Position numbers and translations under genes: made by a program. From NCBI GenBank assembly GCA_030740155.1, contig JASLXV010000054.1, positions 55,645 through 119,644 on the forward strand: a stretch of DNA of 64,000 nt. Reading direction: 5' to 3'. Every line of letters begins with the position of its first letter. Within the stretch, counting starts at the first letter, position 1. This stretch comes from Dehalococcoidia bacterium (GTDB taxonomy: Bacteria; Chloroflexota; Dehalococcoidia; Lucifugimonadales; UBA3495). The notes under the pieces were generated by a model, which was given only the letters and a program-made list of their open reading frames with translations, made no database searches and was not told the DNA's origin. Shown here piece after piece: positions 3,530-59,191 of the stretch.

Positions 3530-4939
<1,410 letters not shown>

Positions 4940-4951
4940 TTACTGTTCCCT

Positions 4952-5815
4952 CTAGCCCTCGAGGGCTATCATCCCGCCAACTAGGTCCAGAAGCTCATTG
5001 GTGATGCTGTCCTGGCGCAGCTTGTTCATGACCAGGGTCAGGTCGTCGACCAACCCGTTAGCGTTGTCCGTGGCGGCGCGCATGGCCACCATCCGGGCCG
5101 ACTGCTCGCTGGCGATGGACTCCAGCAGGGCGTGATACACCTCCATCTCCACGAACCGCGGCAGCAGGTTCCCCAAGACCGTGATGGGATTGGGCTCGTA
5201 GATGTAGCCCACCCGTTCCGGCGCGGTGAGGGCTGCCGGTGTCACCGGCAGCAGCTTCTCCACCACGGGCACCTGGGACAGGGTGGACACGTACTTGGTG
5301 TAGGCCAAGTACACCTCATCCACCTCCCCTTCCGTGTACGCGTCGATCACCAGGTGGGAGACGGCCATGGTATCGGCCTGAGCCGGACTTTCTCCCATGT
5401 CGGTGAATACCGCCTTCAAGTCTTGCGAAGTGCGGACCATGAAATCGCGCGCCTTTCGCCCAACCACGATCACCCGGCAGGGCGCGGCCTGCTCCAACAC
5501 GAACTGGCCCACTCTGCGATTGAGGTTGGAAACCAGGCCGCCGCAGAGACCTCGGTCCGGGCTGATCGCCAGGACCCCGATCCGCTGCACCGGCCTTTCG
5601 CGAAGCAGAGCGTGGGGCCCTCCGCCTTCCTCGCTGGGCTGGGCCGCCAGGTGGGAGATGATCTCCTGGATCTTCTCTGCGTAGGGACGGCCCTGAGTGA
5701 CCGCCATCTGCGCCCGGCGCATCTTGGACGCGGCGATCAACGACATGGCGTTGGTCACCTTGCCCGTGTTTTGCACGCTTCGTATGCGGCGGCGCAAGTC
5801 TCTTACATTGGCCAC
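4952..5815 (-). CDS. atpG: ATP synthase F1 gamma subunit
   Basis: DRGLCG, SEQSARMVAM, RQDSITNEL. Confidence 0.98.
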   Translation of the reverse strand: MANVRDLRRRIRSVQNTGKVTNAMSLIAASKMRRAQMAVTQGRPYAEKIQEIISHLAAQPSEEGGGPHALLRERPVQRIGVLAISPDRGLCGGLVSNLNRRVGQFVLEQAAPCRVIVVGRKARDFMVRTSQDLKAVFTDMGESPAQADTMAVSHLVIDAYTEGEVDEVYLAYTKYVSTLSQVPVVEKLLPVTPAALTAPERVGYIYEPNPITVLGNLLPRFVEMEVYHALLESIASEQSARMVAMRAATDNANGLVDDLTLVMNKLRQDSITNELLDLVGGMIALEG

Positions 5816-20808: not shown

Positions 20809-20970
20809 TCTACTGTCTCATAAATGGTTTGATACCCTGCCCGTCATCCCGGCGAAGGCCGGGTTCCAGCAAAAGCTTCTCTGGATTCCGGCCTTCGCCG
20901 GAAAGACGCCGGTGGTGAGTGTGCCGCATGATTTCGCTGGTGTAAAGCTATTTACGAGACTGTACACTAG
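20805..20970. mobile_element. MITE-like composite element: about 32-bp terminal inverted repeats around a CGTC-type palindromic doublet
   Basis: CTAGTCTACTGTCTCATAAATGG vs reverse complement CTAGTGTACAGTCTCGTAAATAG; CTAG at both ends; inner CGTCATCCCGGCGAAGGCCGG ... CCGGCCTTCGCCGGAAAGACG. Confidence 0.75.
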
Positions 20971-30692: not shown

Positions 30693-30771
30693 GGAGGCCA
30701 GCCAGCTACCGGCCAAGACACGACTCAGATGACCTCACATGGGCGAACCTTACGACGAGCAAGCAACCCTC

Positions 30772-30808
30772 AAGTCCCCCTTTGGTAAAGGGGGATTAGG
30801 GGGATTTC
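30772..30808. repeat. Solo copy of the DUF559 element-1 terminal repeat
   Basis: AAGTCCCCCTTTGGTAAAGGGGGATTAGGGGGATTTC closely matches 53321-53359. Confidence 0.8.
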
Positions 30809-32456: not shown

Positions 32457-32673
32457 CCGGCATGAGGTTAGCCCTCCTGGGGCCGCGCCATGGCCCCGTT
32501 GAAACACGGCTGGCATATCCATCCCGGCCCCCCCAGCAATCGTAGCGCAGCAGTAGCCTCGGCCGGGTGTACAATACTTTGGCGCATGGAGCGCCGGCGG
32601 TCTCTGAGCCACATTCTCTGAAGAGCGGACCCCGGACTTGGACGCCAATCGTTTCGACAGCCAGGTGACAAGA

Positions 32674-33918
32674 ATGACCTACGCCTTGCTTGAAGGCCTG
32701 CGCGTGCTGGAGCTGGGGCAGTTTCTCTCCGCCCCATACTGTGGCAAGCTTCTGGCCGACATGGGAGCGGAGGTCACCAAGATCGAACCGCCCGGCGCCG
32801 GCGACCACGCCCGCCAGTACGGCCCTTTCCTCGGCGACGACCCCCACCGGGAACGCAGCGGCTTATTCCTGTACCTCAACGCCAACAAGCGAGGCGTCAC
32901 CCTGGACCTGGGCACACCCACCGGCCAGGGAATCCTCCGGGAGTTGGTGTCGCGCTCCGACGTTCTGGTCCACAATCTTCATCCGCTGGAGATGGACCGG
33001 TTGCACCTCGACTACGAGGCGGTCAGCCGGGCCAACCCCAGCCTGGTAATGGCATCTATCACCCCCTTCGGGGTAACCGGTCCGTGGCGGAACTACACGG
33101 CATACGACATCAACCTGGCCGCCGCGGGAGGCGTCTGCGAGGGTCTCGGGGAGGCCGTCCGGGAACCACTGACCTTCGGCACTCCCCAAGTGGGCTACTT
33201 CGCCGGCCTTGCCGCCGCCTCAGCTATCGTAATGGCCCTTTTGGCTGTCACCCCCGTCCCCTCTCCCTCAGGGAGAGGGGTGGCCGAAGGCCGGGGTGAG
33301 GGTCAGCACATCGACATCGCCGAGGTGGAGACGCTGGCCGGAATCTACAACGGCCCCGAGGCGCTGATGGCCGTGTACCAATGGCGCATGACCCGGCGCA
33401 CCGGGCACCATGCCCTCGACTTCCCATACCCCAACTGCCTCCTGCGCTGCAAGGATGGATACATCTTCGTCGGCGCTCCCGAGGGCCGTCAGTGGGGCAA
33501 GCTCTTGGAGCTGATGGGAAACCCCGAGTGGTCCAAAGAACCCCGCTTCAGAAACCGGACCGACATGAACAACCTCTACGCCGACGAGGTCGACGGCTAC
33601 ATGGAAGCCTGGCTCATGGACCACACCAAGGCGGAGCTTCTGGAGCTGGCCCTGGAGCACCGGGTCCCCCTGGCGCCGGTGCGCGGCTTTGACGAGGTGC
33701 GCCACGACGAGAGCCTGGCCGGCCTGTTCGTGGACATCGACCGGACTGACACCGGCCCGCTGCCCTACCCCGGCCCGCCCTATGTTCTGAGCGACGCCGC
33801 CGAGGACGCTCCCTCACCCGCTCCCTTCCTGGGCCAGCATAACCAAGAGATCTATTGCGATGTTCTGGGTTTTTCCGGCGAGCAGCTGGTGAAGCTGTAC
33901 CAGACCGGTATCATATAG
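32674..33918 (+). CDS. Family III CoA-transferase subunit lacking the catalytic Asp (BbsE-like), with an in-frame repeat insertion
   Basis: GAEVTKIEPP, NANKRGVTLDL, SITPFG; QVGYFAG at the position where active members have Asp. Confidence 0.88.
   Translation: MTYALLEGLRVLELGQFLSAPYCGKLLADMGAEVTKIEPPGAGDHARQYGPFLGDDPHRERSGLFLYLNANKRGVTLDLGTPTGQGILRELVSRSDVLVHNLHPLEMDRLHLDYEAVSRANPSLVMASITPFGVTGPWRNYTAYDINLAAAGGVCEGLGEAVREPLTFGTPQVGYFAGLAAASAIVMALLAVTPVPSPSGRGVAEGRGEGQHIDIAEVETLAGIYNGPEALMAVYQWRMTRRTGHHALDFPYPNCLLRCKDGYIFVGAPEGRQWGKLLELMGNPEWSKEPRFRNRTDMNNLYADEVDGYMEAWLMDHTKAELLELALEHRVPLAPVRGFDEVRHDESLAGLFVDIDRTDTGPLPYPGPPYVLSDAAEDAPSPAPFLGQHNQEIYCDVLGFSGEQLVKLYQTGII
33258..33303. repeat. Palindromic repeat inserted in frame in the CoA-transferase
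   Basis: CCCCTCTCCC-TCA-GGGAGAGGGG, GGCCGAAGGCC, GGGGTGAGGG; translated as PSPSGRGVAEGRGEG. Confidence 0.75.
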
Positions 33919-39737: not shown

Positions 39738-40250
39738 CTTCATCCCGGCAAAGGCCTAGAAGCAGCAAGCGTTTCTCTGGATTCCGGCCTTCGCCAGAAT
39801 GACGAGAGGAGCGCGGCGGTAACAAGGGGAATGTCGCAACTGCCGTGGAGGGGTGCGGGAGTGTCGAGGTGAGCATGACGAGAAGGAACACCCTCGTGCC
39901 TCACCATCGTCGTTCCGGCGGAAGCCGGAACCCAGGGCGGCAACCTTGCGTGTACCTCCTGGCCAGCAGGCGAAACGGTACGCTGTACGTGGGCGTCACC
40001 TCCAATCTCGTCCAACGTGTCTGGCAACACAAAGGGGACCTGGCCCAAGGGTTCACCCAGCGATACGGCGTGCACGCGCTAGTGTGGTACGAAGCGCACG
40101 TTACGATGGAGAGTGCGATTGGGCGAGAGAAGAGAATCAAGGATTGGAAGCGGTCCTGGAAGATCGCACTAATTGAGGAGTCGAATCCCCGATGGCGCGA
40201 TTTGTATGAGGAGCTTGGTTAGCTGGATTCCGGCCTTCGCCGGAATGACG
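39738..40250. mobile_element. CGTC-type palindromic repeat cluster enclosing a GIY-YIG nuclease gene
   Basis: Doublet at 39738-39804; inverted pair 39908-39935 and 40223-40250 (24/28 identical) brackets the nuclease domain. Confidence 0.8.
39875..40222 (+). CDS. GIY-YIG nuclease (UPF0213/YhbQ-like); start uncertain
   Basis: VYLLASRRNGTLYVGVTSNL..RVWQH...AIGREKRIK.WKR.WK..LIE..NP.W.DL. Confidence 0.9.
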   Translation: MTRRNTLVPHHRRSGGSRNPGRQPCVYLLASRRNGTLYVGVTSNLVQRVWQHKGDLAQGFTQRYGVHALVWYEAHVTMESAIGREKRIKDWKRSWKIALIEESNPRWRDLYEELG

Positions 40251-40375
40251 AATGTGAGGGGATTCGGTGAAGCATTCACCCCTCCGGCCAGGTGCCGATA
40301 TGGGGATGCCTCAGCCGGTTCAGGCGGTTGAAGCTTCCGCGAAGCCTATCATCTCCAGGGTGGACGGACGCTTCC

Positions 40376-43701: not shown

Positions 43702-43742
43702 CCGCGGGACGGCCAGCCCCGGTTCGTCCCCTGGAAAAGGCC

Positions 43743-43810
43743 ATCAAATGCTCATATCGTGGTAGGCCGCCAGCGCGGCGGTGATGCCGTCGCTGACCGC
43801 GGCGCTCGAC
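43743..43810 (-). repeat. Duplicated 3' end of trxB (att-like direct repeat)
   Basis: 62/68 identical to 45392-45459, including the stop codon. Confidence 0.9.
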
Positions 43811-43905
43811 ACCCTATCACTTGTGTCGCGCCAGGCCGTGGGTTAGCATCTCAGTACCAATGCCAGGCAGTAGAATACGCCGGCCCATCGAAAGAGGTTG
43901 CCGAA

Positions 43906-45303
43906 ATGGTCGAGAGAACTGTATCCGAGTGGCTAATAGACCAGGGTCACCCCTCGATGATGGGGAAATCCGTGATCGTGAGTCCCGACTGTCGGCGAGT
44001 GGCCTACATGGTTGAACCTGTTACGGTCTCCAGTTGTTTTGTTGTGGTAGACGGGCAGGAGGGGAAGCACTACGATGGCGTAGAGAAAGGGTCTCTCGTT
44101 TTCAGCCCCAACAGTCAGCGGGTGGCCTATGTGGCTCGTGCGGGCAAGAAGCGGTTTGCAGTTGTGGACGGGCAGGAGGAGAATCAGTACGACAGGATAG
44201 AGGAACAGTCTCTGGTTTTCAGCTCCGACAGCCGACGGGTGGGATATGTGACTCGTGCAGGCAAGAAGCGGGTGGCGGTCTTGGACGAGCAGGAGGGCAA
44301 GCAGTACGACAGGGTAGCGGAAGGGTCTCTCCGTTTCAGCCCCGACAGTCAACGGGTGGCCTACGTGGCTCGCGCGGGCAATAAGCAGTTTGTAGTTGTT
44401 GATGGTCAGGAGCAAGAGCAGTACGACAGGATAGAGAAACAGTCTCTGGTTTTCAGCCCCGATAGTCAGCGGATGGCATATGGGGCTCGTGCGGGCAATA
44501 AGTGGTTTGTAGTTGTGAACGGGCAGGTAGACCGGCAGTACGACAGGATAGAGGGAGGTTCTCTCGTTTTCAGCCTCGACAGTCAGCGGGTGGCCTACGT
44601 AGCTCGCGAAGCGAAGAAGCACTTCGTGGTTGTAGATGGTCAAGAGCAAGAGCAGTACAACGAGATAGGGAAATGGTCTCTCGTTTTCAGCCGGAACAGT
44701 CAGCGGGTGGCCCACGCGGCGAATGCAGGCGGGTGGAATGGGAAGTGGCGTGTCATTGTGGATGGTCAGGAGGGGAAGCACCTCGATGGGGACACCGACG
44801 GCGTAGTGTCGATCATATTCAGCCCGGACAGCCAAAGGTTGGCCTACGAGTTCAGTAGGTGTGAAGGAGGAGCTTATGTGGTCGTGGTGGACGGTCAGGC
44901 ACAGAAGGAGTACGACCGTGTGGAAGGTGGCCTTGCTTTTAGCCCGAATAGCCGACGAGTGGCCTATGTGGCTAGCCAGGGATGGCTGCCGTGGTCGGAT
45001 CATTGGTTTGTAGTATTGGATGGGCGGGAACAGGAGCTTTACAACACGATAGCAATAGAGTCTCTAATGTTCGCTCCCGACAGCCGGCGGGTGGCTTATG
45101 TGGTCTGGGCTGCTACGCGAAGACTGGGTGTCGTGGTACACATGAGGTCGCTGGTCGTGATTGACGGGGAAGAGGGGAGCCAGTACAACGCCATCCCCGC
45201 TCCCTCTGGAGGTGGAGGCATCATCTTCGACTCGCCCAATCAGCTTCACTACATAGCGCGAAAGGGTAACGCCTTCTATCTGGTGGAGGAGCGTTTGGCA
45301 TGA
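43906..45303 (+). CDS. TolB/WD40-like beta-propeller repeat protein
   Basis: About 10-11 repeats of about 39 aa (LVFSPDSQRVAY...VVVDGQE..QYD); exact 117-bp period at 44101-44700; lower GC3 than neighbours. Confidence 0.8.
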   Translation: MVERTVSEWLIDQGHPSMMGKSVIVSPDCRRVAYMVEPVTVSSCFVVVDGQEGKHYDGVEKGSLVFSPNSQRVAYVARAGKKRFAVVDGQEENQYDRIEEQSLVFSSDSRRVGYVTRAGKKRVAVLDEQEGKQYDRVAEGSLRFSPDSQRVAYVARAGNKQFVVVDGQEQEQYDRIEKQSLVFSPDSQRMAYGARAGNKWFVVVNGQVDRQYDRIEGGSLVFSLDSQRVAYVAREAKKHFVVVDGQEQEQYNEIGKWSLVFSRNSQRVAHAANAGGWNGKWRVIVDGQEGKHLDGDTDGVVSIIFSPDSQRLAYEFSRCEGGAYVVVVDGQAQKEYDRVEGGLAFSPNSRRVAYVASQGWLPWSDHWFVVLDGREQELYNTIAIESLMFAPDSRRVAYVVWAATRRLGVVVHMRSLVVIDGEEGSQYNAIPAPSGGGGIIFDSPNQLHYIARKGNAFYLVEERLA

Positions 45304-51847: not shown

Positions 51848-52966
51848 CTAACTGGCTCCCTCCGCCCGCTGCCGGGGCGTCTCGGCCGCCGAACGCTCCC
51901 GGCCCAATAGGGCGGCCTTGCGCTCGGGGCCCCAGCGGTACCCGCCAAGGCCTCCGTCCTGTTTGACCACCCGGTGGCACGGTACCACCAGCGGGACGGG
52001 GTTGGCTCCGCAGGCGCGGCCCACCGCCCGCGCGGCGGCCGGCCGGCCCACCGCGGCGGCCACCTGCTGATAGGACCGGGTCTCGCCATAGGGAATGGTC
52101 CGCAGGTACTCCCACACCTGCCGCTGAAAGGCGGTGGCACGGATGTCCAGCGGCAGGTCCGGATAAGCCAGGTCCCCCTTCAGATGGCGCACCAGGGCCC
52201 CGGCGGATTCGCCAAGGACTCCATCATCCGGGTAGAGCTGGGCCCCTGGGAACTCCTGCCGTAATTCGGCATCCAACTCCGTGTTGGAGCCGCCCAGTTT
52301 TACGGAGCACAGTCCTCGCTCGGTGGCAGCCACCAGCAGCCGGCCCAACGGACAGGCCACGATGGTGTAGGTGATGCTGGCCCCCCGGCCACCCCGGCGA
52401 TAGGAGGCCGGGCTCATGCCCAGATGCCCCGTTGACCCCTCGTACAGACGGCTGGTGGAGCCGTACCCAGCGTCATACATCGCGCCGGTAACGTCCCATC
52501 CTTCTCTCAGCCGGGCCTTGAAGCGGTCCCGCCGGCAGGCATCGGCATACTGGCGGGGCGTGATGCCCATCAGCCGCTTGAAGACCCGGTGGACGTATCC
52601 GGGGCTGGCGCCAGCCTGGCCGCTGAGCTGGGCCAGGGTAGGCGGGCCGTCCGGATTACTTTGAATATACCGGCAGACAAGATTCACTATCTCCAGTGGC
52701 CGGCCAGCAGAAAAGGGTTGGTCGGGACGGCAACGGCGGCAGTGGCGGAAGCCCGCCCTCTCCGCCGCCTCGGGCTCTGGAAAGAAGACCACCTGCTCCC
52801 GATTGGGCCGCCGGCTGGGACAGGAGGGCCGGCAGTAGACCCCAGTGGAGCGAACGGCGTACACGAAGGCGCCGTCAGACCGTTGGTCACGGGCCAGCAC
52901 GGCCTGCCAGCGGCGGTCCGGGTCACCATGCTCGATGGAAGAGGGTTGCACTTTGAGCGTTGCCAT
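51848..52966 (-). CDS. ada: Bifunctional Ada regulator/O6-methylguanine-DNA methyltransferase
   Basis: GVYCRPSC and CRRC Zn site, AraC-like HTH, PCHR. Confidence 0.95.
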   Translation of the reverse strand: MATLKVQPSSIEHGDPDRRWQAVLARDQRSDGAFVYAVRSTGVYCRPSCPSRRPNREQVVFFPEPEAAERAGFRHCRRCRPDQPFSAGRPLEIVNLVCRYIQSNPDGPPTLAQLSGQAGASPGYVHRVFKRLMGITPRQYADACRRDRFKARLREGWDVTGAMYDAGYGSTSRLYEGSTGHLGMSPASYRRGGRGASITYTIVACPLGRLLVAATERGLCSVKLGGSNTELDAELRQEFPGAQLYPDDGVLGESAGALVRHLKGDLAYPDLPLDIRATAFQRQVWEYLRTIPYGETRSYQQVAAAVGRPAAARAVGRACGANPVPLVVPCHRVVKQDGGLGGYRWGPERKAALLGRERSAAETPRQRAEGAS

Positions 52967-53251: not shown

Positions 53252-53281
53252 TTGTTAAGTCGTACATTCGTTCTATATAAT
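53252..53281 (+). promoter_or_regulatory. Promoter of the imuB-dnaE2 cassette with a LexA-like box
   Basis: TTGTTA, 18 bp, TATAAT; GTAC-ATTC-GTTC at 53262-53273 resembles GAAC-N4-GTTC. Confidence 0.6.
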
Positions 53282-53320: not shown

Positions 53321-53788
53321 GTTCCCCCCTTTGTAAAAGGGGGGGGCAGGGGGGATTTCCCCGCCAAATAAGAAGCCCTGAAGAGTTATCCCACAATGCT
53401 CAAATACAACCTCAAACAGACTCCACGCCACTTGCGTAAAGAAATGACCCATTGTGAGCAGATGCTATGGGCACAGCTGCGTAAGAAACAGCTCCGCAGT
53501 GTGCAATTCTATCGGCAGAAGCCCATAGGAACTTGTATTGTAGACTTTTACGCGCCCAACGCTAAGTTGGTGGTGGAGGTGGATGGATCACAACACCTGG
53601 GTCTAGAGCATACGCAGAATGACGCGGAACGGGATGCCTGCCCGGCAAGCGCAGGCCTGCGGATACTGCGCTTTAGCAACATGCAGGTATTGCAAGAGCT
53701 TGATGCGGTGGTGGATATCATCCTAAAAGTTCTTGTGAATCAAGTAGACGAAATCCCCCCTGACCCCCCTTTAACAAAGGGGGGATTC
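53321..53788. mobile_element. DUF559 element 1: endonuclease gene between about 39-bp palindromic terminal inverted repeats
   Basis: Left GTTCCCCCCTTTGTAAAAGGGGGGGGCAGGGGGGATTTC; right (reverse complement) GAATCCCCCCTTTGTTAAAGGGGGGTCAGGGGGGATTTC. Confidence 0.8.
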
Positions 53789-53800
53789 GCTAATGCCTGA
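53396..53800 (+). CDS. DUF559 (Vsr-like/YcjD) endonuclease-domain protein
   Basis: LRKEMT..E..LW..LR, F.RQ.PIG..IVDF, VEVDG.QH, D.ERD, LRF.N; low GC. Confidence 0.88.
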   Translation: MLKYNLKQTPRHLRKEMTHCEQMLWAQLRKKQLRSVQFYRQKPIGTCIVDFYAPNAKLVVEVDGSQHLGLEHTQNDAERDACPASAGLRILRFSNMQVLQELDAVVDIILKVLVNQVDEIPPDPPLTKGGFANA

Positions 53801-54983
53801 ACGCTTGATCGCCTGCGTACTGGTCACCCACCTTCCCATGAAAGCGGAGCTGCGGCGGTATCCCGAGCTTCGGGGAAAGCCGGTCGTTATAACGGAATGC
53901 TACGGCTCCAAGGATCTGGTGCTGGACAGCTCTCCCGAGGCCCGGGGAGTTGTCGCCGGCATGCCTCTTCAAGAGGCCGTGTCCCGGTGCAAGGACACGG
54001 TCTTGCTCCGGGCGGATGCACCGCACTACGAGTCGGCCTTCGACGCGGTGATCTGCTCCCTGGAGCAGCGGAGCCCCCTGGTGGAGAAGGCCGATCTGGG
54101 CCGCGCCTACGTGGGGCTGGACGGACTGGAAGCCATGTACGGGGATGAGGCCAGGCTCATAGCGTCGCTGCTCCAGGCGGTGCCCCAGGAGTTCAATCCT
54201 CGCATCGGAGTGGCCGGGGGGAAATTCCCGGCCTACGTCGCCGCGGTGACCAGCCGCAGCGGCCGGGCCACCAGGGTTCCGGAAGATGTAGCCGGGTTTC
54301 TCAAGGAACTCTCCGTCGACCTGTTGCCCCTGTCCTGGGACAACAAGACCCGCCTACACCGCTTCGGACTGCACACCTTGGGCCAGCTGGCGGCCCTTTC
54401 TGCAGGTTCGATCCAAGCCCAGTTGAAGGCTGAGGGGAAACGGGCCTGGGAGCTGGCCGGCGGCATCGACCGCAGCCCGCTGCTGCCCTTCCAGCGCGAG
54501 GAGGCGGTGACGGAATTCCTCACCTTCCCTTCGCCGGCCGTAACCCAGCCCGCTATTTTAATGGCGGTAGAGACGCTGCTGGGCCGCGCTTTTAGCCACC
54601 CCCAAATCCGCGGCAAGTATGTGCGCACGGCTGCCATCGAGAGTCAGGTGGTCCGTCACCCCCCGTGGACCAGGCACTTCGCCTTCAAGGAGGCGGTGGG
54701 CAGCAAAGAGAGGGCCCTGTTCGCCCTGAAATGCCGGATGGATACAACCGTCCTGCCCGGCCCCTTGGAAGACATGAAGCTCACTCTGGCCGGGTTCACC
54801 GGCGAGTCCGGCATCCAGTCCAGCCTTTTCTCGGATGTCCGCAAGCGGGAGCAACTCCGGGAGATGATGCGGCAACTGGAGGCCCTCCTGGGCGGCAAAC
54901 CGCCCATCTACCAGGTAAAGGATGTAGAGCCGTGGTCCAGAATCCCCGAGAGACGCCAGGTCTTGGTGCCCTTCGACCCCTGA
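53793..54983 (+). CDS. imuB: ImuB-like inactive Y-family polymerase (N-terminal and central part)
   Basis: ARGVVAGMPL, SPLVE, RIGVAGGKF.A.VA, clamp-binding-like QSSLF, PWSRIPERR; lacks catalytic acidic motifs; upstream of dnaE2. Confidence 0.8.
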   Translation: MPERLIACVLVTHLPMKAELRRYPELRGKPVVITECYGSKDLVLDSSPEARGVVAGMPLQEAVSRCKDTVLLRADAPHYESAFDAVICSLEQRSPLVEKADLGRAYVGLDGLEAMYGDEARLIASLLQAVPQEFNPRIGVAGGKFPAYVAAVTSRSGRATRVPEDVAGFLKELSVDLLPLSWDNKTRLHRFGLHTLGQLAALSAGSIQAQLKAEGKRAWELAGGIDRSPLLPFQREEAVTEFLTFPSPAVTQPAILMAVETLLGRAFSHPQIRGKYVRTAAIESQVVRHPPWTRHFAFKEAVGSKERALFALKCRMDTTVLPGPLEDMKLTLAGFTGESGIQSSLFSDVRKREQLREMMRQLEALLGGKPPIYQVKDVEPWSRIPERRQVLVPFDP

Positions 54984-55219
54984 ACCTCCCGGTACCCATC
55001 GCCGTTGAGGAGGATGCCCGCCAGCGGCCCCTGGCCCTGATCCAACGGGGCCGCAGGCTCAGGGTGGTCACGATAGATGGCCGGTGGAAAATCGACGAGG
55101 AGTGGTGGCGGGAAAACCCCATCCTCAGGATGTACTACCAGGTGACCACCGGGGACGGCCGGCGCATTACCGTTTTTCGAGACCTCACCACCGGGAAATG
55201 GTACCGGCAAAGGGGTTAG
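54932..55219 (+). CDS. ImuB C-terminal-domain-like small protein (overlapping, -1 frame)
   Basis: RPLNLPVPI...RGRRLRV...WKIDEEWW...RMYYQV...G....VFRDL..G.WY; GTG at 54932. Confidence 0.7.
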   Translation: MVQNPRETPGLGALRPLNLPVPIAVEEDARQRPLALIQRGRRLRVVTIDGRWKIDEEWWRENPILRMYYQVTTGDGRRITVFRDLTTGKWYRQRG

Positions 55220-55224
55220 GGCAA

Positions 55225-55763
55225 GCGATCAGCGGTCAGCGAGAGCACTCCCTTCCCCCCTTTGGGGAAGATCACATAAGTCCCTTCCCCACTTGTGGGG
55301 GAAGGTTAGGATGGGGGAATGAACGTCGCAAAAGCCAGAGAACTGAGGAAGAACCCCACAGAATCCGAGCGAACTCTATGGAAACACCTTCGCATGCGCC
55401 AGATCAATGGCTACAAGTTTCGCCGTCAGCAGCCTATTGGACGATACATTGTCGATTTCGTGAATTTCGAGAGAAGAGTGGTTATAGAACTGGACGGCGG
55501 GCAACATTCCCAACAAATAGTTTATGACTCAATAAGGACTGCCTGGCTGGAGGCTCAGGGATACCAAGTGCTCAGGTTCTGGAACAATCAGATTCTAAAG
55601 GAAGCTGAAGCGGTTAAAGCAACCATACTAAAAGCCTTGGAATGTGAGTGCGATGCCCCACCTTAATCCTCCCCCACAAGGGGGGAGGAGAGGTCGAGCC
55701 ATGGAGGACTCTCCAAACCATTCACATCTTTCATCCAGACCCTGAAAGCTGACCGCTGACCGC
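55225..55763. mobile_element. Nested insertion: heptamer inverted repeats enclosing DUF559 element 2
   Basis: Outer GCGATCAGCGGTCAGC / GCTGACCGCTGACCGC (15/16); inner palindromic TIRs at 55282-55317 and 55656-55691. Confidence 0.75.
55319..55666 (+). CDS. DUF559 endonuclease-domain protein
   Basis: ARELRKNPTESE..LWKHLR, KFRRQQPIGRYIVDF, IELDGGQH, VLRFWNN; low GC. Confidence 0.92.
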   Translation: MNVAKARELRKNPTESERTLWKHLRMRQINGYKFRRQQPIGRYIVDFVNFERRVVIELDGGQHSQQIVYDSIRTAWLEAQGYQVLRFWNNQILKEAEAVKATILKALECECDAPP

Positions 55764-55766
55764 CAC

Positions 55767-58700
55767 ATGTACGTCGAACTCCACTGCCACAGCAACTACT
55801 CCTTCCAGGAGGGGGCCTCTTCCGTGGAGGAACTACTCGTCCGCGCCAAGGAACTGGGCTACCCGGCGCTGGCCCTCACCGACCACGACAATCTGTGCGG
55901 GGCCATGCACTTCGCCGAGGTGGCCCGGAGCCTGGACCTACAGGCCATCACCGGCGCGGAGGTCACCCTCAAGGACGGCTCCCACCTGACCCTGCTGGCC
56001 GAGACGCGGCAGGGATACCGCAACCTGTGCAACCTCCTCTCCTACTCCTACATTACCGGCGGCCGCCGAACCCCCGGTTTGGACCCCAGACACCTGCCCG
56101 AGCTGGCCGAGGGCCTCATCCTGCTCACCGGATGCCGGAAGGGCCCAGTCTCCAGCCTGCTGGCGGAAGGCCGGCCGGAGGAGGCCGAAGGGGCGCTACG
56201 CCAATACCTGGACTGGCTCGGAACGGCCAACGTCTTCGTGGAGCTGCAGCAAAACCTGGTCCAGGGCGATACCCAGCGCAACCGGCGGCTCATCGAACTG
56301 GCCCGCGGGCTAGGCGTGGGAGTGGTGGCCGCCAACAACGTCCACTACCACGTCCCGGAACGCCACCGCCTCCAGGACGCCCTGGTCGCCATCAGCAACA
56401 ACCAGAGCCTGGAGAACACCCACCCGCAACGCCGTCCCAGCGGCCAGTTTTACCTCAAGTCTCCGGAGGAGATGGCCGGCCTGTTCCGGGGATGCCCGGA
56501 AGCCATTGAGAACACCTTGAAAATAGCCGGCCGGTGCGCCTTCGACCTCACCAGAGACCTGGCCTACCGGTTCCCCGATTACCCCGTGCCCGAAGGCTTC
56601 ACCCCCCAAACCCACCTGGAAAACCTCTGCTACCAGGCCGCCGGGCGCCGCTATGGCAGCGTCACCGAAAAGGTAAAGGCGAGACTCCAGGAAGAGTTTA
56701 GCCTGGTCCAAAGGCATAACCTGGCGGGGTTCTTTCTGATTTACTACGACATCATCCAGATAGCCCGCCAGATCATGATCGAGCTGGGCCTGAGCGACGC
56801 GGAGATACCCCTGGAAGAGCGGCCGCCGGGAAGGGGACGGGGCTCATCGGTAGCCATGCTGGTGGGTTACCTCATCGGCCTCTCCCACATCGACCCCCTC
56901 GAGTTCAACCTCTCCCTGGACCGGTTCCTATCCGACGACATAGGCTCGGTCCCCGACATAGACCTGGACTTCCCCCGAAACATCCGGGAAGAGCTGATCA
57001 AACGGGTCCATGAAAAGTGGGGATGGGACCACGCCGCCCTCACCGGGATGATCAGCACCTACCAGCTAAAGGGGGCGGTCCGGGACCTGGGCAAGGCGCT
57101 GGGGCTTCCCCTGCAGGAGGTCGCCAAGCTGGCCAAGAGGGCCGAGTCCTACAGCGCCAAGAGCCTGCAGTTGGAGATGCTGACCCTTCCCGAATTTCGG
57201 GACAAGGTGGACGCTCCGGTGTGGCGCGACCTCATCGACCTGGCCGCCCAGCTCGACGGCTTCCCCAAGTACTTGGCCCAACACCCCGGCGGGATGATTG
57301 TCAGCTCTTCTCCTCTCATCGACATGGTGCCGGTGCAGCCGGCCGCCATCGAAGGCCGCTATATCTGCCACTGGGACAAGGACGGCATCGACCAGGCCGG
57401 TTTCGTGAAGATCGACTTTCTCGCCCTGGGCACCCTATCCCAACTGCAGGATATCCTCCTGCTCATCGAAGAGCGGGAGGGCCACTACATCGACCTGAGC
57501 CGCATCGACTTCAATGACTCGGCGGTGTACGAGATGCTGCACCAGGCCGACACCATCGGCATATTCCAGGTGGAATCGGCGGCCCAGATACAGACCATCC
57601 CCCGCATCAAACCCCGGAACCTCACCGACATGGCCTACGAGGTGGGCGCGGTGCGACCCGGCGTTGGGGCCAATGACGGGGTCACCCTGTTCATCCAACG
57701 GCGTTCCCTGGGCATCCCCTGGGACTACGACCACCCCCTGGAGCAGCGGGCGCTGGAGCGGACCCTGGGGGTCATTCTGTTCCAGGACCAGGTGAACCAG
57801 CTGGCCATCGACGTGGCCGGGTTCAGCGGCGCCGAGGCCGACCAGCTCCGGCGGGCCTTCATCCGAAAGAACAACCAGACGCTCGTCGCCTTCTACTGGG
57901 AAAAGTTCCGGCAGGGTTCCCAGGGTCTGGGCGTCCCCGAGGACGTGGCCCAGACGATCTTCAAGAAGTTCAACGGCCAGTACATGTTCCCGGAGTCCCA
58001 CGCCTTCGCCTTTGGTGTAACCGCCTACCACATGGCCTGGCTCAAGCACTACTACCCCCTGGAGTTCTTCGTCGCCATCTTCAACCAGCAGCCCATGGGG
58101 TTCTACAACCTGGAGACATTGAAAGAGGACGCCAAACGGCACGGGATCACCGTGCTCAACCCCGACATCAACGCCAGCATCGAAAAGTGCATCATCAAAG
58201 ATGAATCCCTGTTGCTGGGGTTCTTGCGGGTGAGAGGAGTGGGCAAAACCGCGGCGGAATCGATCGTCCGGGCAAGGGAGCGAGATGGCCTCTTCAGCAG
58301 CCTCGCCGATGCCATGGAGCGGACCGGGTTGCTGCGGGAAGCCGTCGAAAACCTGGTGGCGGCAGGTGTCTTCGACTCGCTGCAAGCTGCCGCCGGACGA
58401 ACCGGGGAAATCCCCCCCGCCGGCCCAGGAGCGATTGGCGAGTCGCCCCCACCACAAGATAGATTCGAAGGCAGGCTTGCCAAAACCCTTAGCTCCCCTT
58501 TCGTAAAGGGGGGATGGGGGGATTTCGACACTCCCACCATCAAACCGCGGCCGACGCCCGGCGCAGCCAGCACATCGGACCGCCGGGCGACGCTGTGGGA
58601 AGTGGGTCTGCGCTACCATCCCACGAAATCCGGGCCTGGCGGCTATCAACTGGCGCTCTCCCTTCCCGTCGAGCAGGACATGGCCGAACTGCCTCCCCAA

Positions 58701-59102
58701 AGCCGGTGGGAGGTCATGCTCGATGAATACCGCACCATGGGCCTTCACCCGGCGGGGCACCTGATGGCCATGCTGCGGCCCCACTTGCCCCCAGGGGTCC
58801 ACAGCAGCCGGGAAATTCTGGAGCTGGCCGATGGCACGGAGGTAACCGTGGCCGGCCTGGCGATCCGCCGGCAGCGTCCCCTAGGCAAGACCGTGTTTGT
58901 CACCCTGGAGGACGAGTTTGGGCACATCCCCCTGGTGGTATGGCCCAAGGTGTACGAGCAGTACCGGCTGGTCTTGCGGGAGTCTGTCCTGATAGTAAAG
59001 GGGGAAATTTCCCGCAGGGAGGGCACCATGAACGTAGCGGTCAAGCACGTGGCGAGGGCCAGGGGGGGCCAAAACCTACCTAAGGCCAAGAACTGGCAAT
59101 AG
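55767..59102 (+). CDS. dnaE2: Error-prone DNA polymerase DnaE2 (ImuC) with a 60-aa repeat-derived insertion
   Basis: YVELHCHSNYSF PHP domain, GRGS, PDIDLD, QHPGG, KIDFL, FPESHA, NQQPMGFY, OB fold; downstream of imuB. Confidence 0.92.
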   Translation: MYVELHCHSNYSFQEGASSVEELLVRAKELGYPALALTDHDNLCGAMHFAEVARSLDLQAITGAEVTLKDGSHLTLLAETRQGYRNLCNLLSYSYITGGRRTPGLDPRHLPELAEGLILLTGCRKGPVSSLLAEGRPEEAEGALRQYLDWLGTANVFVELQQNLVQGDTQRNRRLIELARGLGVGVVAANNVHYHVPERHRLQDALVAISNNQSLENTHPQRRPSGQFYLKSPEEMAGLFRGCPEAIENTLKIAGRCAFDLTRDLAYRFPDYPVPEGFTPQTHLENLCYQAAGRRYGSVTEKVKARLQEEFSLVQRHNLAGFFLIYYDIIQIARQIMIELGLSDAEIPLEERPPGRGRGSSVAMLVGYLIGLSHIDPLEFNLSLDRFLSDDIGSVPDIDLDFPRNIREELIKRVHEKWGWDHAALTGMISTYQLKGAVRDLGKALGLPLQEVAKLAKRAESYSAKSLQLEMLTLPEFRDKVDAPVWRDLIDLAAQLDGFPKYLAQHPGGMIVSSSPLIDMVPVQPAAIEGRYICHWDKDGIDQAGFVKIDFLALGTLSQLQDILLLIEEREGHYIDLSRIDFNDSAVYEMLHQADTIGIFQVESAAQIQTIPRIKPRNLTDMAYEVGAVRPGVGANDGVTLFIQRRSLGIPWDYDHPLEQRALERTLGVILFQDQVNQLAIDVAGFSGAEADQLRRAFIRKNNQTLVAFYWEKFRQGSQGLGVPEDVAQTIFKKFNGQYMFPESHAFAFGVTAYHMAWLKHYYPLEFFVAIFNQQPMGFYNLETLKEDAKRHGITVLNPDINASIEKCIIKDESLLLGFLRVRGVGKTAAESIVRARERDGLFSSLADAMERTGLLREAVENLVAAGVFDSLQAAAGRTGEIPPAGPGAIGESPPPQDRFEGRLAKTLSSPFVKGGWGDFDTPTIKPRPTPGAASTSDRRATLWEVGLRYHPTKSGPGGYQLALSLPVEQDMAELPPQSRWEVMLDEYRTMGLHPAGHLMAMLRPHLPPGVHSSREILELADGTEVTVAGLAIRRQRPLGKTVFVTLEDEFGHIPLVVWPKVYEQYRLVLRESVLIVKGEISRREGTMNVAVKHVARARGGQNLPKAKNWQ
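58407..58526. repeat. Element-1 repeat remnants inserted in frame in dnaE2
   Basis: GAAATCCCCCCC (58407-58418) and CTCCCCTTTCGTAAAGGGGGGATGGGGGGATTTC (58493-58526). Confidence 0.8.
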
Positions 59103-59153: not shown

Positions 59154-59191
59154 CCTCTCCTCCTTGCGAAGGAGGAGATAAGAGAGGGGGT
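59154..59191. repeat. Hairpin plus purine-tail repeat with DUF559-TIR architecture, between convergent genes
   Basis: TCTCCTCCTT-GCG-AAGGAGGAGA followed by TAAGAGAGGGGGT. Confidence 0.6.

Follow-up and report, generated by a model that had tools for sequence, protein, structure and literature searches.

We analysed a stretch of 64,000 nucleotides from a Dehalococcoidia bacterium (contig JASLXV010000054.1, positions 55,645 to 119,644; hereafter the window), in which two genes of the DUF559 family, D1 and D2, lie in the imuB-dnaE2 operon, each between its own pair of inverted repeats. The genome holding the window (3.6 Mb) is designated G000; other G numbers denote compared genomes, L numbers loci, and g numbers genera. 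The flanking repeats belong to the BoxC/PIT/triplex-motif class. Which repeat type is present depends on the clade of the protein and not on the host, and genomes with an intact DUF559 gene usually hold far more repeats than those without it, with exceptions. The repeat and the protein family were each already known on their own, and their pairing was not found in the searched literature. On balance, we lean towards the explanation that each DUF559 enzyme would work in trans on the BoxC/triplex variant that frames its gene and would thereby sustain the spread of this repeat family, in the manner of the tyrosine transposases associated with repetitive extragenic palindromes (REP), termed RAYT, and not as a self-moving transposon.

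D1 and D2 share 40% identity and are the only PF04480 matches in G000. Their GC contents are 51% and 47%, compared with 62-65% in the surroundings. The inverted pairs span 53325-53359/53750-53784 in element 1 (35 nt, 80% complementary) and 55281-55316/55656-55691 in element 2 (36 nt, 81% complementary), with the G-tails facing the gene in both. An earlier interpretation of the letters alone (the sequence-only reading) had described two low-GC DUF559 genes with inward-tailed repeats of their own, and the Pfam, GC, and repeat computations agree with it. That reading had also assigned translation signals to the repeats, and these were confirmed in the sequence. The D1 frame crosses its right repeat, so that the repeat encodes the C-terminus, and its stop codon overlaps the imuB ATG, ahead of which the right repeat is the sole G-rich stretch. 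The left tail of element 2 stops 2 nt short of the D2 ATG and is likely the ribosome-binding site of D2, while the right repeat holds its stop codon. Contigs from three DNA runs span element 1 (X14, X17) and element 2 (X14, X17, X18), indicating that the elements are not assembly artefacts. A variant in G-run length of the element 1 left repeat occurred in two of the DNA runs.

The repeats consist of a pyrimidine stem, a loop, a purine stem, a short loop, and a mirrored purine tail. All four flanks fit the class II purine-motif design for an intrastrand triplex (G/C-rich, stems ≥8) with 0 mismatches, and a triplex is predicted. A genome-wide scan of G000 found 133 motifs, compared with 0 in two shuffled versions, and the hairpins were sorted into the main types A (76), B (36), and C (23). 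Twelve of 56 type-A hairpins were double-tailed. The window flanks do not match the exact TMECO consensus, types A and C being stem variants; the strict type-B pattern gave 0 matches in G000, though close type-B variants are present. In a check for a conserved tetranucleotide tag at the hairpin foot, A-R-T preceded the C-run in 71 of 210 flanking motifs. The TMECO pattern itself returned 23 copies in Escherichia coli K-12, matching the published number.

According to the available part of PMC4666352, more than 260 genomes contain BoxC/triplex repeats, which are associated with local instability of the genome; they are intergenic, form doublets, show palindromic deletions, and differ strongly in copy number between close strains. 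The repeats described here have the same build as BoxC/TMECO but differ in their stems, and some G000 copies lie in frame in genes. The main text of PMC4666352, in the part at hand, makes no mention of a partner gene (0 occurrences of "endonuclease" and of "ycjD"), and PMC2267715, likewise available in part, lists BoxC merely as a known family. No paper in the searched literature links DUF559 with the BoxC repeat, subscription journals and the PMC4666352 supplements lying beyond that reach. The supposition that the system is undescribed agrees with this search as regards the pairing and fails for the repeat itself, whose BoxC/triplex identity the sequence-only reading had missed.

The solo copies noted in the sequence-only reading were found at all four sites, one of them in frame in dnaE2 (Table 1). 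At the site starting at 33249, genome G001 has a type-A repeat nested inside a type-B repeat and G022 has no repeat. The G001 counterpart of the solo hairpin at 30765..30806 bears its tail on the opposite side, and G001 carries a different repeat family at the 59156..59191 site.

To assess the pairing, we used a family and order sample with 124 DUF559 hits, including nine G136 copies and fragments. A motif lay within 200 bp of 111 hits, on both sides of 79, and beside none of 13, whereas random 340-bp segments had a motif on either side in 3.2% of cases and on both sides in 0.025%; together with the shuffled scans, this background bears out the view that the repeats are not due to chance. Across phyla, a motif was present at 72 of 80 DUF559 loci and in 3 of 145 control windows. 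Six of the 80 cross-phylum matches (L376, L388, L404, and three others) lie in frames longer than 300 aa and are possibly in-frame insertions into host genes. Of 59 cassettes, 40 had their start codon ≤12 nt from the left repeat, and the stop codon fell within the right repeat in 27 of 55. One locus in another phylum (L328) has a 69%-identical DUF559 gene with the same repeat pair. In E. coli, where the DUF559 gene is ycjD, a TMECO repeat lies ~160 bp beyond the gene end and a degenerate copy lies at the 3' end; in strain CFSAN061770, an intact TMECO overlaps the end of ycjD.

Protein and repeat were also compared by phylogeny, as the sequence-only reading had proposed, and the expected co-variation was found. 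The DUF559 tree was built from 116 rows and 109 columns and left many forks open. Its D1 clade (support 99) comprised 16 rows, of which all 14 motif-bearing ones had type A, a type found in no other row. Another clade (support 100) had type E only, and the large D2 clade (support 97) had types B and C. Protein and repeat distances were correlated (Mantel rho 0.63, permutation maximum 0.23, n=99). Furthermore, in 11 of 11 same-genome pairs with a protein distance above 0.45, the two repeats differed more from each other than each did from the repeat of its nearest protein relative in another genome.

Since linkage alone predicts clade specificity, genome-wide repeat counts were tested. In genus g2, the median was 56.5 repeats in genomes with an intact gene (n=14) and 1 in those without (n=39). 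The corresponding medians in g21 were 93 (n=18) and 3 (n=17), and the broken genes of g21 accompanied 0, 1, 6, 7, and 52 repeats. On a recA tree of g2, seven independent pairs pointed in the same direction 4.6 times and in the opposite direction 0 times (median p 0.0625), and three repeat-rich, gene-less genomes nested within gene-bearing clades. Type-A repeats were present in 17 of 17 D1 carriers, and a D1 hit in 0 of 155 type-A-negative genomes. Among the eight E. coli strains counted, out of 11, those with ycjD had 15, 23, and 34 motifs, and those without had 2, 2, 11, 11, and 13.

Several observations weigh against an action of the gene on the repeats. Co-variation of a gene with its own flanks is what linkage would give in any case, the independent-pair test falls short of 0.05, and the E. 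coli strains are structured by phylogroup and not independent. Genus g12 gave a weak dose effect (p 0.06) and g13 none (p 0.44), nor could one be made out for D1 in g7. D1 is absent from 31 of 48 type-A genomes, and G000 (93.7% complete) contains its 36 type-B hairpins with no type-B-flanked gene. Three single-contig genomes with 93-96% completeness (G100, G112, G195) have 122-291 repeats, and DUF559 was not found in them. A search for a hidden DUF559 in five repeat-rich genomes, run without a positive control, gave none, nor was a D1-type gene found in five type-A-rich genomes. In addition, the empty sites in relatives resemble losses and not pre-insertion states, so that causality could run from the repeats to gene retention. 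The action of the enzyme on the repeats is inferred from the genomes compared.

The structure model of D2 (predicted local distance difference test score, pLDDT, 87) matched 3HRL (Z 16.6), the catalytic domain of I-Bth0305I (Z 11.9), and Vsr (Z 10.8). Residues D46, E57, H63, and D70 (D2 numbering) were invariant in 13 sequences including D1 and D2. The DUF559 proteins are thus predicted Vsr-type nicking nucleases. They share the catalytic fold and the invariant Asp/Glu/His/Asp set with Vsr and the EDxHD homing endonucleases. The available part of PMC1189080 already connects YcjD with Vsr, and that of PMC3239194 describes I-Bth0305I with a NUMOD region. In contrast to the homing endonucleases, D1 and D2 are single domains of 115-134 aa that stand free between genes, lack the NUMOD DNA-binding region, and have neither an intron or intein host nor a fixed homing site. 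In comparison with Vsr, no cytosine methylase adjoins DUF559 in the window. The N-terminus of D1 is two codons shorter than in its relatives, and its few unusual substitutions are suggestive of decay, against which the predicted catalytic residues are intact.

We examined how the genes reside in their genomes. The 114 family matches are spread over 90 of 203 family genomes, mostly one apiece. The loci are lineage-specific, with the same locus kept across genera, and amount to ~30 distinct host loci by hand count. The upstream gene was co-directional in 70 of 73 cases, and the proposal that the elements insert into operons without breaking them was borne out. The dN/dS ratios of 0.04-0.26 for the family, and of 0.09-0.18 for D1 where measurable, indicate that DUF559 is under purifying selection, as judged from the sequences. 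In most pairs, its dS was close to or higher than that of the host imuB. Since dS was not clearly below imuB, a recent horizontal transfer of either gene within the family was rejected. Matches were found in 0 of 50,697 phage records and in 17 of 72,556 plasmid records, the listed ones being mostly of chromosome or chromid size. In E. coli, ycjD is present in 3378 of 5426 genomes at one place, where, according to the available part of PMC12817139, it alternates with eefRABCD. At two loci (L319 in G076 and L320 in G109), an unrelated gene for a membrane-anchored coiled-coil protein occupies the NUDIX-side slot that holds DUF559 in relatives.

Of the two marks of insertion named in the sequence-only reading, empty sites were found in relatives, at both operon slots and at the dnaE2 linker, and a target duplication was not: in 37 inward cassettes, the longest direct repeat averaged 2.46, compared with 2.30 ± 0.27 after shuffling. 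Among 79 two-sided hits, the flanks were inward in 60, outward in 12, tandem in 6, and reverse tandem in 1. Gene loss left recognizable scars. G059 has one tailless hairpin where G072 has hairpin, tail, gene, tail, and hairpin, and the scar in G107 is a microhomology join. A read contig has a joint that bypasses D2 exactly (55317 to 55656); its sides are of repeat length only, and it may be a gene-less doublet from elsewhere, so that it was not accepted as an excision within the species. Junctions from 55241 to 53312 and from 55763 to 53789, each in a single contig, hint at slot exchange in co-occurring relatives; these two junctions were left out of the counts.

No transposase was detected among the 43 + 7 window ORFs (open reading frames) scanned, a set that omitted the majority of those past 48 kb lying outside the operon. 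The claim that no transposase is present holds for these ORFs; the genome, G000, encodes ISL3 and IS4/IS5-type transposases. Genome-wide transposase searches of G000 covered PF01609, PF01610, and PF01797 only; PF01797 gave no match, that is, no RAYT/IS200 transposase. Mobilisation by the resident transposases was rejected: the ends of the ISL3 element bear no relation to the repeats, and all four transposase hits are free of triplex motifs for 2 kb around them. In G136, the one genome in which DUF559 is amplified, nine near-identical cassettes lie within separate 11-bp outer inverted ends flanked by a 6-bp duplication, and the start codon was lost in eight of the nine. The outer ends seem to resemble those of IS5-type elements. 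The G136 copies (L155, L160, L162, L172, L176) entered a single hairpin repeat family, some in one orientation and some in the other. The outer ends, the duplication, and the lost starts indicate that the cassette can travel as cargo.

Under the explanation towards which we lean, a nick by the DUF559 nuclease at the folded hairpin would start an event, after which host recombination or repair would copy the repeats to new hairpins or dispensable sites. The palindromic hairpin would serve as the crossover core, and the gene itself would move only rarely. The palindromic nature of the hairpin makes the ends of a cassette direct repeats as well, and a crossover within the hairpin would yield all four layouts, double-tailed solos, single-hairpin scars, and no target duplication. 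It is improbable that the 0.4-0.5 kb repeat-gene-repeat unit instead moves by itself, through homing-like cutting and repair or through excision and reintegration at hairpins, with the solo repeats as its scars. The ~30 host loci in the family and order sample, the positions of the start and stop codons at the repeats, the gene and repeat pair shared with another phylum (L328), the solo hairpin left upon gene loss, and the occurrence of both clades in both slots, swapped between G000 and G022, are consistent with such a unit. However, one gene copy stands against solos numbering in the tens to hundreds, its position is shared throughout a genus, dS is close to or above that of imuB in most pairs, target duplications and phage records are absent and plasmid records few, and the unit that swapped slots includes the heptamer arms and a four-helix-bundle remnant. 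Consequently, of the nuclease-plus-cognate-repeat mobility system that had been put forward, the pairing stands, and the autonomous unit with terminal inverted repeats (TIR) does not, given the missing duplication, the variable flanks, the single copy, and the dS values.

A nuclease that serves the host might also be considered, with DUF559 repairing or resolving non-B DNA and being kept where repeats abound, while the repeats spread passively by slippage or template switching. The Vsr-like fold, purifying selection with vertical residence, the 19 of 114 matches in the imuB-dnaE2 operon with others beside uvrB, uvrD, and recQ, and the existence of repeat-rich genomes without the gene fit this explanation, as does the replication-linked instability of the motif proposed in the available part of PMC4666352. 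We nevertheless consider it rather unlikely, because it leaves unexplained both the clade-specific repeat types, which differ even within one genome, and the small number of repeats in most relatives without an intact gene; moreover, the neighbours are mostly metabolic genes. Transport as cargo, in which a separate transposase or the heptamer/four-helix-bundle system moves the gene with its repeats and these pile up in tolerated slots, gains from the nine G136 copies with their outer ends, duplication, and eight lost start codons, from the arms and remnant shared by D2 in G000 slot 2 and G022 slot 1, and from the transposases encoded in G000. As a general account it appears highly improbable: the ISL3 element carries ends that are particular to it, the four transposase hits have no motif in their vicinity, a RAYT/IS200 transposase was not found in G000, and outer ends were noticed only in G136. 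Hitch-hiking would cover the gene moves, but neither the clade-specific repeats nor the dose effect.

The two operon sites proved to be reused slots common to unrelated cassettes, a point that had been missed before. In 75 imuB operons, 40 slots were filled by genes for DUF559, four-helix-bundle (TIGR02436/PF05635), or GIY-YIG (PF01541) proteins, and the slot genes were in sense orientation in 46 of 46 hits. The 47-row imuB tree requires at least 9 changes of occupant at slot 1 and at least 15 at slot 2. Even sister genomes differ, G000 having D2 where G001 has a four-helix-bundle gene, and G022 shows the reverse of the window, D2 filling slot 1 and D1 slot 2. In both G000 slot 2 and G022 slot 1, heptamer arms enclose D2 together with the C-terminal remnant of a four-helix-bundle gene, within which element 2 is nested, and the double left structure of element 2 (tailless hairpin plus motif) recurs in G022 slot 1. 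The composite of D2, arms, and remnant thus likely changed slots. The sequences suggest that four-helix-bundle cassettes with heptamer arms were the first to open both window slots, which later cassettes then used again. In g7, D1 took the place of a four-helix-bundle gene and was itself displaced by a GIY-YIG gene, of which event a repeat tail or gene fragment remains. A third slot is the linker of dnaE2, with 3 codons in many relatives, 66 in G000, and a maximum of 130 with stacked repeat families.

The four-helix-bundle cassettes (23S rRNA intervening-sequence protein, IVP, TIGR02436; heptamer arms) and the GIY-YIG cassettes (REP-like arms) share the layout and the same two slots with DUF559, and their proteins and repeats are unrelated to those of DUF559. 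No paper in the searched literature treats the three together. Tentatively, they might form a transposase-free, repeat-propagating class, in which each protein keeps its own folding repeats, the cassettes insert both into hairpins and into other cassettes and take over from each other at fixed operon slots, DUF559 supplies the enzyme that BoxC has lacked, and the hairpin is the crossover site; we regard this broader grouping as possible though doubtful. An intact four-helix-bundle gene was not found in the G000 genome, which contains eight more inward heptamer-arm pairs, mostly short (C20:77322, C38:87319, C69:72234/90857/101418, C95:41722, C105:16944). In the window, a GIY-YIG gene lies between its own inverted REP-like hairpins at 39890-40251 and also occurs in G000 at C17:19728 and C59:11590. 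The three copies, at three loci, are 93-96% identical, which suggests movement more recent than that of DUF559, and related gene-less repeats lie at 20842-20908 and 39740-39805. At L039 (G019, 4360-5330), slot 2 holds ~0.9 kb plus a gene-less inward repeat doublet, and slot 1 also has a doublet; the ~0.9 kb segment looks by eye like a group II intron remnant.

Control by the SOS response had been suggested for the system. The placement of the cassettes in this operon agrees with this, but most other loci lie in metabolic operons. A motif upstream of slot 1 that overlaps the -10 hexamer (Table 1) likely marks a LexA-type operon promoter, judging from its sequence; its identity as a LexA box is presumptive, the lexA and recA genes of G000 gave no match to the SOS-box-like pattern used, and a literature search on LexA gave no paper. 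A single group of relatives accounts for all 19 family matches in the imuB-dnaE2 operon. The idea that SOS targeting is general was rejected: only ~4-5 of ~30 loci have DNA-repair neighbours (hand count, with 7 of 147 flanking proteins left out for size), among them uvrB, uvrD, and recQ. Reuse of the slots is explained no less well by tolerated, transcribed space than by selection for control through the SOS response.

Table 1. Positions of the DUF559 genes, repeats, and neighbouring features in the window.
Feature	Position	Strand	Basis or remark
D1, DUF559 gene, 134 aa, slot 1	53396..53800	+	Pfam E 6.7e-32
D2, DUF559 gene, 115 aa, slot 2	55319..55666	+	Pfam E 8.5e-44
Element 1 left triplex-motif repeat, type A (C-run/TTT hairpin and G tail)	53324..53357	+	motif scan
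Element 1 right triplex-motif repeat	53752..53784	-	motif scan; D1 reads through
Element 2 left end: tailless hairpin (55250-55270) and full type-C triplex motif (55283-55316)	55250..55316	+	
Element 2 right triplex-motif repeat, holds D2 stop codon (TAA)	55656..55689	-	motif scan
imuB-like Y-family polymerase gene, host	53793..54983	+	PF00817; NCBIfam polymerase IV families below cut-off
Small host gene, 95 aa, DUF6504-like, kept between imuB and dnaE2	54932..55219	+	
Left heptamer arm, older four-helix-bundle cassette	55224..55239	+	
Four-helix-bundle C-terminal remnant (12 codons and stop) and right heptamer arm	55721..55764	+	aligns with slot-2 genes in G001, G007
dnaE2 error-prone polymerase gene, host	55767..59102	+	
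dnaE2 in-frame linker insert, 66 codons, with type-A repeat at 58493-58524	58383..58580	+	
Solo type-A repeat (motif at 30775) with degenerate second tail	30765..30806	+	
Solo type-B repeat, in frame within CoA-transferase gene	33249..33302	+	
Solo type-C variant between dnaE2 and convergent gene	59156..59191	+	
SOS-box-like motif overlapping -10 hexamer, upstream of slot 1	53262..53281	+	likely LexA-type promoter; same motif before imuB in most relatives' operons

Other features of the window were noted. DUF6504 is annotated on 63% of the members of one look-alike cluster of the 95-aa gene, which is a lead only. The first codons of imuB (53793-53810) seem to be derived from a decayed heptamer arm, and the extension is common to several DUF559-less relatives. 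The CoA-transferase gene with the in-frame repeat belongs to family III (32608-33915); the repeat lies in a linker, and a few more in-frame copies may exist in the genome. An Ada/Ogt alkylation-repair gene (51848-52966) is divergent from the imuB operon and is also present in G003 and G007. A gene at 43702-45300 has ~10 internal 117-bp repeats (WD40-like PD40 match), with a 71-bp near-duplicate at 43740 and 45389.

Among known mobile systems, the arrangement most resembles that of REP sequences, including their paired form REPIN, and RAYT. According to the available part of 10.1101/2021.07.10.451892, RAYT genes are single-copy, non-jumping, flanked by cognate repeats, accompanied by many non-autonomous repeats that are fewer where the gene is missing, and absent from mobile DNA. 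DUF559 shares the single-copy gene flanked by cognate repeats and the hundreds of repeats, whose number was lower without the gene in g2, g21, and E. coli but only weakly so or not at all in g12, g13, and g7, and its absence from phages and rarity on plasmids are like the absence of RAYT from mobile DNA. The enzyme is, in contrast, a 115-aa nuclease of the predicted Vsr type and not an IS200-like HUH tyrosine transposase (Y1_Tnp), and the gene occupies different loci in different lineages, with near relatives in other phyla. The repeat, a triplex motif, lacks the GTAG tag of that system. We know of no strand-transfer chemistry for the Vsr-type fold. With TIR-bounded insertion sequences of the IS5 and ISL3 types and miniature inverted-repeat transposable elements (MITEs), DUF559 shares a gene between inverted repeats, gene-less doublets, and solos; unlike these, it lacks a DDE transposase, a target duplication, and a fixed orientation, and it is single-copy with long residence.

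To the pairing, this analysis adds the dose test within genera and in E. coli, the empty-site scars, and the succession of three families in the slots. The slot succession presents compact operons as landing pads for small selfish cassettes, and the in-frame copies show repeats entering essential proteins. The available part of PMC4666352 names no factor that mobilises or maintains BoxC repeats, and a single-copy nuclease that predicts repeat number makes their origin testable, with ycjD of E. coli K-12 as a ready test case. If the proposed action in trans is true, BoxC, a 30-year-old repeat, would gain its missing enzyme, a widespread domain of unknown function would gain a function, and the REP/RAYT way of life would have a second enzyme chemistry.

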